Assembly: GCF_055900595.2 (NCBI RefSeq)
Contig: NZ_JBVWEU010000002.1
Strand: one strand, 5' to 3'
Length of the DNA stretch: 64,000 nt
Source: a plasmid
Shown here: piece after piece, positions 57,983 through 59,670 of the stretch
How positions within the stretch are numbered: the stretch's first letter is position 1
How the letters are laid out: every line of letters starts with the position of its first letter
The notes under the pieces: model-generated
What the model was told of the DNA's origin: nothing
What the model saw: the letters and a program-made list of their open reading frames with translations, nothing else
The model's database searches: none
Program-made: the position numbers and the translations under genes

Positions 57983-58132
57983 TTACTTCCGTGCTTCGTA
58001 GGCCAGAGTTACCTGCACCACTGTATTTCCCCTGTGAATATTCAGCTCACATAACCGTTCTCTGAATATCAGTGAAAAACACAACACCGTGGCGCACACG
58101 GCGAGCAGCCCGATAAGGGCATATTTCGTCAT
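57983..58132 (-). CDS. Hok/Gef-family type I toxin (SrnB/PndA-like)
   Basis: 49-aa ORF MTKYALIGLLAVCATVLCFSLIFRERLCELNIHRGNTVVQVTLAYEARK; in-frame upstream extension (MKYLNTTDCSLFF...) resembles the srnB-type leader. Confidence 0.7.
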   Translation of the reverse strand: MTKYALIGLLAVCATVLCFSLIFRERLCELNIHRGNTVVQVTLAYEARK

Positions 58133-58412
58133 AAACTTTGACCTCTCTGCAAAGAAGAGGCTACAATCAGTAGTGTTAAGGTACTTCATGCAGACCTCAC
58201 GAGTTAATGGATTAACGAGTGGGGTCTTCGCATTTCTGGTACCTGCGTCTTGCCTGAACCAGAAAGGCTCAGACACCCGCCGCGATAATACCACATTCCT
58301 GTCTGGTTACGACGATCTCCATGCCCCCGGTTTTTATTGCAGAAACGCCGGGAGCGGGGAAAACTTGCTTTTTCCCGTTTCCGGGGTTGGACAACTGAGC
58401 AACGCGAAGGCG

Positions 58413-58915
58413 TCAGCTACGATGTTCCGGTGACTGCTGATCAGCCCCTGTTGTATTCAGCCATTCTCCGGTCATCTGCAGCAGTTTTCTGGCATCGTGG
58501 CTTCTGAGCAACGGAATACCAGCCTGCCTCAGAACCTCTTCCAGAAGAATATCCCGGCGTCTGCGTTCCGGTCGTAAATGGCTGGCATCATCCAGCTCTA
58601 CTGCTGCAACAATACTGAACGAACGCCGCTCAACGATAACCACATCAACATGCCACTGAGACACCATCCTGAATAACTGCCACCACTGGCGTGATCGTGG
58701 CCGGATATTCCCGTTCAGCTGGACGATATCCGCGACCCGTACCTGCGGACACAGATACCACCGCTGGACAGTATTCGCTCTGCATCACCGGTCCGTATAC
58801 CTGCCGTATGCAATTGCATCAGCAAAGGAGAATGCTGATTTACACTTCTGAGGATAATCCGGATAAGTAACGCTGCAATAATCAGAACAATGAGAATAAA
58901 AATAATCAACTTCAT
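58413..58915 (-). pseudogene. DUF2726-type gene, apparently frameshifted
   Basis: Two adjacent minus-strand ORFs in different frames: N-terminal TM segment (MKLIIFILIVLIIAALL) and ...VDVVIVERRSFSIVAAVELDDASHLRPERRRRD...AGIPLLR. Confidence 0.45.
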
Positions 58916-58953
58916 TATTTATCTGCTCCTGGCAATTAATTATTGCTGAATTA

Positions 58954-59163
58954 TTACCTTACATATTTCCATATCTCTTTTGGTATCCTGTCATATAACT
59001 TTCCGGTGATTAATTCCGCTAACCGGTGGTCTGCTGCTGAATTAAATGACTCACGTTCACTGTTTGATAAACTGTCTCTGTTTTTATGAATAATTTTTTC
59101 CAGCGTATTGACTGATGAACATCGCCGTAACTGATACAGCCATTCCTGTTTTGTTTTTGCCAT
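58954..59163 (-). CDS. Hypothetical small protein
   Basis: 69-aa ORF between the DUF2726 pseudogene and nuc; no motif recognised. Confidence 0.25.
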   Translation of the reverse strand: MAKTKQEWLYQLRRCSSVNTLEKIIHKNRDSLSNSERESFNSAADHRLAELITGKLYDRIPKEIWKYVR

Positions 59164-59208
59164 TTTTATTCCCGCTGAGAACAGATGAATGATAGGATTG
59201 CCATCGCT

Positions 59209-59670
59209 TTATTTACGGTGCCTCCATATCCAGGGGGGAACCGGATCAGCATCTGACCAGAGCCCACGTTTTTGTTGTCTGGCTTCGTTCTGAAGGACAG
59301 GCAGCACGGGATCTGTGTTGTACTGCTCATATACCCAGGCAGCCCCGGCCCGGACCATAAACTGATTAATATTCATTCCGTCTGGTGCATAAACCTGCCC
59401 GAGAATACGACCATAACGATCTCGCTGAAAATATGTGACGGTAACCGTTTTTCCTGCGACCAGTGATTTCATCATGTCTGTTGACCACCGGCCATAATCC
59501 TGTTTCTTTTCCGGTGCATCAATATTTACCAGCCTGATCCGCACCGCCTTCCGTGAGTCCATGACCTCGATGGTATCACCGTCCAGTACACGAACAACCC
59601 GTCCATGAATATCTGCAGACAATACCGGCCATGAAAAGATAAATAATACCAGTGGAATATATTTCATCAT
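59209..59670 (-). CDS. nuc: Secreted thermonuclease-family (SNase-like) nuclease
   Basis: Signal peptide MMKYIPLVLFIFSWPVLSA then ...VRVLDGDTIEV...IRLVNIDAPE...YGR... Confidence 0.7.
   Translation of the reverse strand: MMKYIPLVLFIFSWPVLSADIHGRVVRVLDGDTIEVMDSRKAVRIRLVNIDAPEKKQDYGRWSTDMMKSLVAGKTVTVTYFQRDRYGRILGQVYAPDGMNINQFMVRAGAAWVYEQYNTDPVLPVLQNEARQQKRGLWSDADPVPPWIWRHRK

Follow-up and report, generated by a model that had tools for sequence, protein, structure and literature searches.

The closest described relatives of the toxin locus reported here are hok/sok (parB) of plasmid R1 and srnB/srnC of plasmid F. In these plasmids the toxin mRNA is first silenced by fold-back pairing and then processed at its 3′ end, after which an antisense RNA blocks the mok-coupled translation of the toxin – an arrangement that results in the killing of plasmid-free segregants (PMC4147584). 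The F locus is a documented hok/sok homologue for which post-segregational killing and plasmid stabilisation have been reported (Nielsen et al. 1991, as cited in PMC4147584). For the genes that accompany the toxin the nearest point of reference is R100 (NR1; the sequence used was NC_002134), where finO, an ANR-like reading frame, a thermonuclease gene, hha, a DUF2726 gene, copB, tap and repA follow one another; in R100 the hha homologue has been published under the name rmoA (Nieto et al. 1998, listed among the references of PMC4864382).

The segment described here comprises positions 57983 to 59670 of the window, by which we mean the whole 64,000-nucleotide stretch of plasmid DNA that was analysed. 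Taken as a whole it is best explained as part of the ordinary backbone of F-like (IncFII/FIC-type) plasmids, namely the section at the distal end of tra, a reading to which we assign a probability of about 0.93. The gene order is finO, the ANR-like reading frame with the antisense RNA AS-pc02, a putatively exported nuclease of the staphylococcal nuclease (SNase) type, hha/rmoA, DUF2726, srnB/srnC and then copB-tap-repA. Each component is a known family member at a known place, and in this sense the finding is already known: the new detail is solely the exact nature and the rarity of a deletion within the DUF2726 gene.

Place of the segment in the plasmid backbone

The anatomy of the segment and the identities of its parts can be read directly from the DNA (Table 1). 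Sequence, ORF list and Pfam agree that all genes between 57451 and 60824 lie on the minus strand. The left boundary is formed by copB, which in identical plasmids carries the label 'replication regulatory protein RepA', and the right boundary by finO, beyond which stand traX and traI. When the stretch from 57700 to 60300 was compared by megablast with a plasmid collection, at least 5000 records matched; among the matches listed, the majority were conjugative plasmids of Escherichia, Klebsiella, Shigella and Salmonella.

Table 1. Features of the segment and its flanks (positions are those of the window)
Feature	Position	Strand	Evidence and remarks
repA	56281-57150		replicon flanking the segment
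CopA RNA	57223-57313	+	Rfam
copB/repA2, replication regulator of IncFII-type replicon	57451-57699	-	PF10723 RepB-RCR_reg, 116.7 bits; left boundary
srnB mRNA (approximate ends)	57880-58278	-	fold, alignment with F, Rfam leader match
SrnB/Hok toxin coding sequence, 49 aa plus stop	57983-58132	-	PF01848 Hok/Gef, E 1.2e-8, 34.8 bits (cut-off 22)
mok-like (srnB′) upstream in-frame ORF, 68 aa	57983-58189	-	ORF list and sequence; ATG at 58189 behind GAGG
Putative Sok-like (srnC) antisense promoter	58138-58167	+	TTGACC, 18-nt spacer, TACAAT; consensus scan, 10/12 matches
Predicted SrnC (Sok-like) antisense RNA, about 65-70 nt (approximate ends)	58174-58244	+	fold -31.5 kcal/mol, z -4.7
Putative srnB promoter, extended -10 (TGg TATTAT)	58285-58293	-	read from sequence; 7 nt upstream of predicted mRNA 5′ end
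DUF2726 pseudogene, 503-bp remnant of 591-bp gene	58413-58915	-	alignment to intact alleles, frame and repeat check
Deletion junction, one surviving AGCGGTG (CACCGCT on +) of a 7-bp direct repeat	58759-58765	-	repeat check against intact gene
hha/rmoA-type modulator gene, 69 aa	58954-59163	-	PF05321, 84.4 bits (cut-off 25); between DUF2726 and nuclease
SNase-like (thermonuclease family) gene, 153 aa	59209-59670	-	PF00565, 107.5 bits
AS-pc02 antisense RNA	59834-60019	+	RF02876, 178.1 bits (gathering score 40), full-length; over 3′ half of ANR-like ORF
ANR-family-like small ORF, 70 aa	59916-60128	-	NCBIfam NF033650, 28.1 bits, below cut-off 32; outside the segment, same module
finO	60264-60824	-	ORF list and annotation of identical plasmids; right boundary, traX and traI next

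The likeness to R100 extends to orientation as well as to gene order, and is close at the level of the proteins: 68 of the 69 residues of Hha are identical (99%), as are 150 of the 153 residues of the nuclease (98%). R100 differs in that its DUF2726 gene is intact (591-bp) and in that no srnB is present between DUF2726 and copB. The comparison with F is of a different kind. In F (NC_002483, 1258-3427) srnB and copB are kept (96.6% over 669 bp), whereas homology ends just upstream of the srnB -10 region; there F is rearranged: hha is gone, as are the greater part of the nuclease gene and the whole of DUF2726 except for 28 bp, and some 690 bp of unrelated sequence have taken their place. Given that F works without them, the trio of hha, nuclease gene and DUF2726 is dispensable in a functional F-like plasmid.

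A preliminary description of this DNA had placed a hok-family toxin, a frameshifted DUF2726 gene and a secreted nuclease between the IncFII replicon and finO, under the label of a maintenance and leading-end backbone. All three features are present on the minus strand, with Pfam, Rfam and the ORFs in agreement, and the replicon and finO do flank them; what that list omitted is a fourth gene within the same span, the hha/rmoA-type modulator. The word 'maintenance' is a fair one for srnB/srnC. The term 'leading-end', by contrast, is wrong. From about 15.3 kb (15321) onward the window is collinear with the near-identical plasmid pB771_128330, in which the tra operon runs from traM to traI and is followed by traX and finO. 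The leading region of pB771 lies beyond traM, at the other end of the tra operon and about 32-42 kb from the segment; it holds genes for an SLT transglycosylase and a DUF932 protein, a second hok, psiA/psiB, a ParB-like gene, ssb and an antirestriction gene. A leading region is expected beside oriT and away from tra, with genes such as ssb, psiB and antirestriction, and the present segment stands instead downstream of traI-traX-finO.

Several further observations concern the rest of this plasmid. In pB771_128330 traI (67966-73216 of that record, outside the window) is a pseudogene that has lost 20 bp near codon 25, at a site with CTGGG microhomology on its flanks, a lesion of the same style as the DUF2726 deletion described below. 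A disrupted traI was also suspected in the window, from a 778-aa ORF and from the pB771 pseudogene, and was rejected: the part of traI that the window contains (61644-64000, 2357 bp) is open and gap-free against intact traI, and the codon-25 site lies outside the window. Upstream of the replicon (1-56000), going by the annotation of a plasmid that is collinear with about 15321-50000 of the window, there is cargo that includes a MacAB-type efflux set with its outer-membrane subunit, an iron ABC transporter plus an MFS gene, a bacteriocin immunity gene with an HNH remnant, an extra gene of the ProQ/FinO family, and two paralogous clusters of DUF2877, fdrA, DUF1116 and carbamate kinase genes. Between 8148 and 8149 a 2.27-kb segment of pB771 is missing, comprising most of an annotated group II intron reverse transcriptase/maturase gene. 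Two matches at Rfam gathering level, STnc490 (13960-14033, plus strand, 59.5 bits) and the ALIL frameshifting pseudoknot (14870-14986, minus strand, 121.5 bits), lie in a rearranged stretch where the window departs from pB771, and are probably parts of insertion sequences.

The toxin locus srnB/srnC

The toxin locus is srnB/srnC of plasmid F, the hok/sok homologue. The Hok/Gef match sits in a longer in-frame ORF (57983-58294), and in plasmids that are 100% identical to the window over 57700-60300 the toxin has the accession WP_001312851.1: the very accession borne by the Hok/Gef gene that lies immediately upstream of the RepFIC copB of F. The two loci thus share both toxin and site, beside copB of an FII/FIC-type replicon, and they are the same in mok-like frame, antisense promoter and fold-back pairing. 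DNA alignment over the roughly 400-nt mRNA, from the -10 region to the 3′ hairpin, reveals five mismatches, and there is one amino-acid change in the mok-like extension (residue F in place of L). With hok/sok (parB) of R1 the locus has in common the family and the regulatory logic – toxin, overlapping mok, cis-antisense RNA and inhibition by 3′ fold-back (PMC4147584) – while being a different family member at a different plasmid location, a likeness drawn from the published description of R1. It is extremely unlikely that the locus is itself R1-type parB, or the flm of the F leading region: parB, flm and srnB are all members of the Hok/Gef family and are recognised by the same Pfam and Rfam models, but the identical accession occupies the srnB position beside copB in F, the DNA is nearly identical, and pB771 has its second, different hok (with a DUF5431/mok annotation) in the leading region.

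The structure of the predicted mRNA conforms to that of the family. The stretch 57880-58278 folds with a free energy of -178.4 kcal/mol (z -7.8), and in both the minimum-energy and the centroid fold its first 9 nt, GGGUGUCUG (58278-58270), are paired with a 3′ fold-back element, CAGACACCC (57928-57920); the terminal hairpin at 57880-57902 would mark the 3′ end. On the minus strand Rfam has a match to RF01794 'sok' at 58120-58278, with 94.5 bits where the gathering score is 59. As this match is read in the same sense as hok and extends from the 5′ end of the mRNA up to the hok AUG, it marks the leader. A toxin of the Hok/SrnB type with its leader, as had been proposed for this position, is accordingly what is found there. 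The same match was considered as the antisense RNA itself and was rejected: being on the strand of hok, it was excluded from the antisense evidence, and the antisense gene must therefore lie on the plus strand, read from the promoter opposite the leader.

For the mRNA, the putative promoter was read from the sequence; from its -10 downstream the sequence at this promoter is identical in F. The consensus scan missed it, since that scan demands a match at -35. The mok-like frame, the 207-bp form of which PGAP annotated in pB771, has its start region covered by the predicted antisense RNA. A Sok-like promoter opposite the hok leader had been suggested as a point to search for, and a candidate does come to light: it lies opposite the mok-like start, as the family would lead one to expect, and is kept in F except for one spacer base. 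Over the whole scan promoters were not enriched above shuffled sequences, so what speaks for this one is where it lies and that it is conserved with F. The predicted SrnC would have an unpaired 5′ end lying across the mok-like start codon, followed by a long hairpin; since it is encoded in cis, its complementarity to the leader is perfect. Its ends, as given in Table 1, are estimates.

Judged from the DNA, the hallmarks of hok/sok – toxin ORF, mok-like frame with ribosome binding site, antisense gene and 5′-3′ fold-back pairing – are all present, and nothing in the locus looks broken. If it works as its counterparts in F and R1 do, the srnB mRNA would be stable and folded, and silenced by pairing of its 5′ and 3′ ends. 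After 3′ processing the short-lived SrnC would block the mRNA over the mok-like start, to which toxin translation would be coupled; upon loss of the plasmid, SrnC would be the first to disappear and the cell would be killed.

The nuclease, the Hha-type modulator and the ANR-like reading frame

Alignment with the nuclease of S. aureus shows that D21, R35, D40, E43, Y85 and R87 are conserved and that an A stands in the place of T41. The N-terminal 19 residues, MMKYIPLVLFIFSWPVLSA, are hydrophobic, stand ahead of the region that aligns with mature SNase and resemble a Sec signal. The proposal of a secreted SNase-like enzyme is thus borne out as regards family and signal-like N-terminus, and the latter suggests that the protein may be exported. 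Its only PADLOC match was a generic one, to the SNc domain; the defence-system models of PADLOC gave no match for DUF2726, Hha, the ANR-like ORF or Hok.

The adjacent modulator gene matches its family over the full length, with 99.5 bits to NCBIfam NF008191 (cut-off 90). The small reading frame beyond the nuclease is labelled 'ANR family transcriptional regulator' in CP099137 and in R100. A terminator-like hairpin is present on the plus strand at 60236-60259, further downstream of AS-pc02.

The DUF2726 gene and its 88-bp deletion

Intact DUF2726 is a protein of 196 aa with an N-terminal hydrophobic helix and a PF10881 domain over residues 59-170. Across 21 homologues, down to 52% identity, E66, D92, H118, D120, E136, D138 and H142 are invariant. 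The intact protein has a predicted restriction-endonuclease-like fold. With an AlphaFold model (pLDDT 77, pTM 0.67) Foldseek returned no significant match, and a sequence search for solved relatives gave none that was significant. We predict that the intact protein is a membrane-tethered, Vsr-like nuclease, with a Vsr/DUF559-like PD-(D/E)XK domain anchored through its N-terminus. From the PD-(D/E)XK nucleases Vsr, DUF559 and I-Bth0305I it differs by its N-terminal transmembrane helix and by being a predicted nuclease, present in the window as a pseudogene.

The nature of the lesion is seen directly in alignments with two intact alleles (CP146941 and CP099137), to which the sequence is nearly identical apart from a single clean gap of 88 bp. 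Within the undeleted gene of 591 nt the motif AGCGGTG occurs at nt 151 and again at nt 239, exactly 88 bp apart, and a single copy survives at the junction. As 88 is not divisible by three, the reading frame changes: the gene is split between an N-terminal frame (58715-58915), which stops after 66 codons, and a C-terminal frame (58413-58667) of 84 codons, which retains the Vsr-like catalytic core. In the window PF10881 covers profile positions 54-110 only, in the downstream piece, as against 2-110 in the intact protein, and the domain as a whole is spanned by no single ORF. The deletion costs the protein residues about 53-82, among them invariant positions and the first helix of the core, and what remains would not be expected to fold. 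What is left is the remnant of a family member and not a functional member. In pB771_128330 the 503-bp remnant has the same limits and is annotated by PGAP as a 'frameshifted' pseudogene. We infer that slipped-strand or microhomology deletion between the two AGCGGTG copies would have removed the missing residues.

The distribution of the lesion was followed with a 44-bp query designed so that only the deletion junction seeds a match. It was found in 6 PLSDB records and in 6 of 5426 complete E. coli genomes from RefSeq, 8 accessions in total and all of them plasmids; the undeleted 88-bp segment was found in 1946 records from 1763 of the 5426 genomes. Among the matches listed, five deletion-bearing records show 100% identity with the window across 2.6 kb, and one more reaches 99.9%; for the closest intact allele the figure is 99.8% over the same length. 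The deleted allele thus arose once and has been inherited by a small clade of E. coli plasmids. Since the deletion comprises 88 bp bounded by repeats, and since an identical junction is present in 8 separately deposited records, it is real and not an artefact: the lesion is a rare, recent, lineage-specific decay of single origin. The preliminary description was therefore right that the gene is disrupted and right to offer decay as one of two causes, while the 'frameshift' it reported stems from a deletion of 88 bp and not from an indel of 1-2 nt.

A different question is whether the deletion was selected, for instance because a membrane-anchored nuclease is costly in this combination of plasmid and host. 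The allele has been kept in plasmids of human, chicken and other origin, F has independently lost the block of SNase, hha and DUF2726, and the 20-bp microhomology deletion in traI of pB771 suggests a lineage that is shedding functions. But the allele occurs in merely 6 of about 1770 carrier genomes, and the near identity of its records (99.9-100% over 2.6 kb, among the matches listed) fits hitch-hiking in one recent clone. We consider selection unlikely.

It is highly improbable that the split gene still functions, be it as a 66-aa membrane peptide together with an 84-aa fragment of the catalytic core, or by recoding. The C-terminal frame does begin with ATG and keeps the block of invariant residues H118, D120, E136, D138 and H142, but the deletion takes the invariant L61, T63, E66, F69, D78 and W82, and in the predicted fold it removes the first helix and the beginning of strand 1. 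Moreover AGG abuts the internal ATG, which leaves no usable Shine-Dalgarno spacing, ribosomal frameshifting cannot bridge a gap of 88 nt, and F is fully functional while almost wholly without the gene. There is next to no chance that the gene is in reality intact and the frameshift an error of sequencing or assembly, as had been suggested beforehand: single-base homopolymer errors are common in some assemblies, but this is an 88-bp deletion with a 7-bp direct repeat, and the identical junction comes from different laboratories, hosts and countries. Given a shared deletion bounded by repeats, resequencing is very unlikely to restore a single frame.

The segment is textbook IncF backbone and, apart from correct annotation, its importance is slight. 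Decay of the DUF2726 gene nonetheless has its uses. The lesion illustrates clearly how sequence can be deleted between short direct repeats, and its 88-bp junction provides a clean clonal marker of one rare plasmid lineage, present in 8 public records as against about 1760 genomes in which the segment is undeleted. About one in three complete E. coli genomes has DUF2726 on a plasmid; the gene is evidently dispensable, since F has lost it too. That its loss was selected here, or that a leftover piece – the 66-aa transmembrane peptide or the 84-aa core fragment – has a function of its own, is very unlikely; were either to prove true, it would give a first handle on the role of a very common IncF backbone gene.
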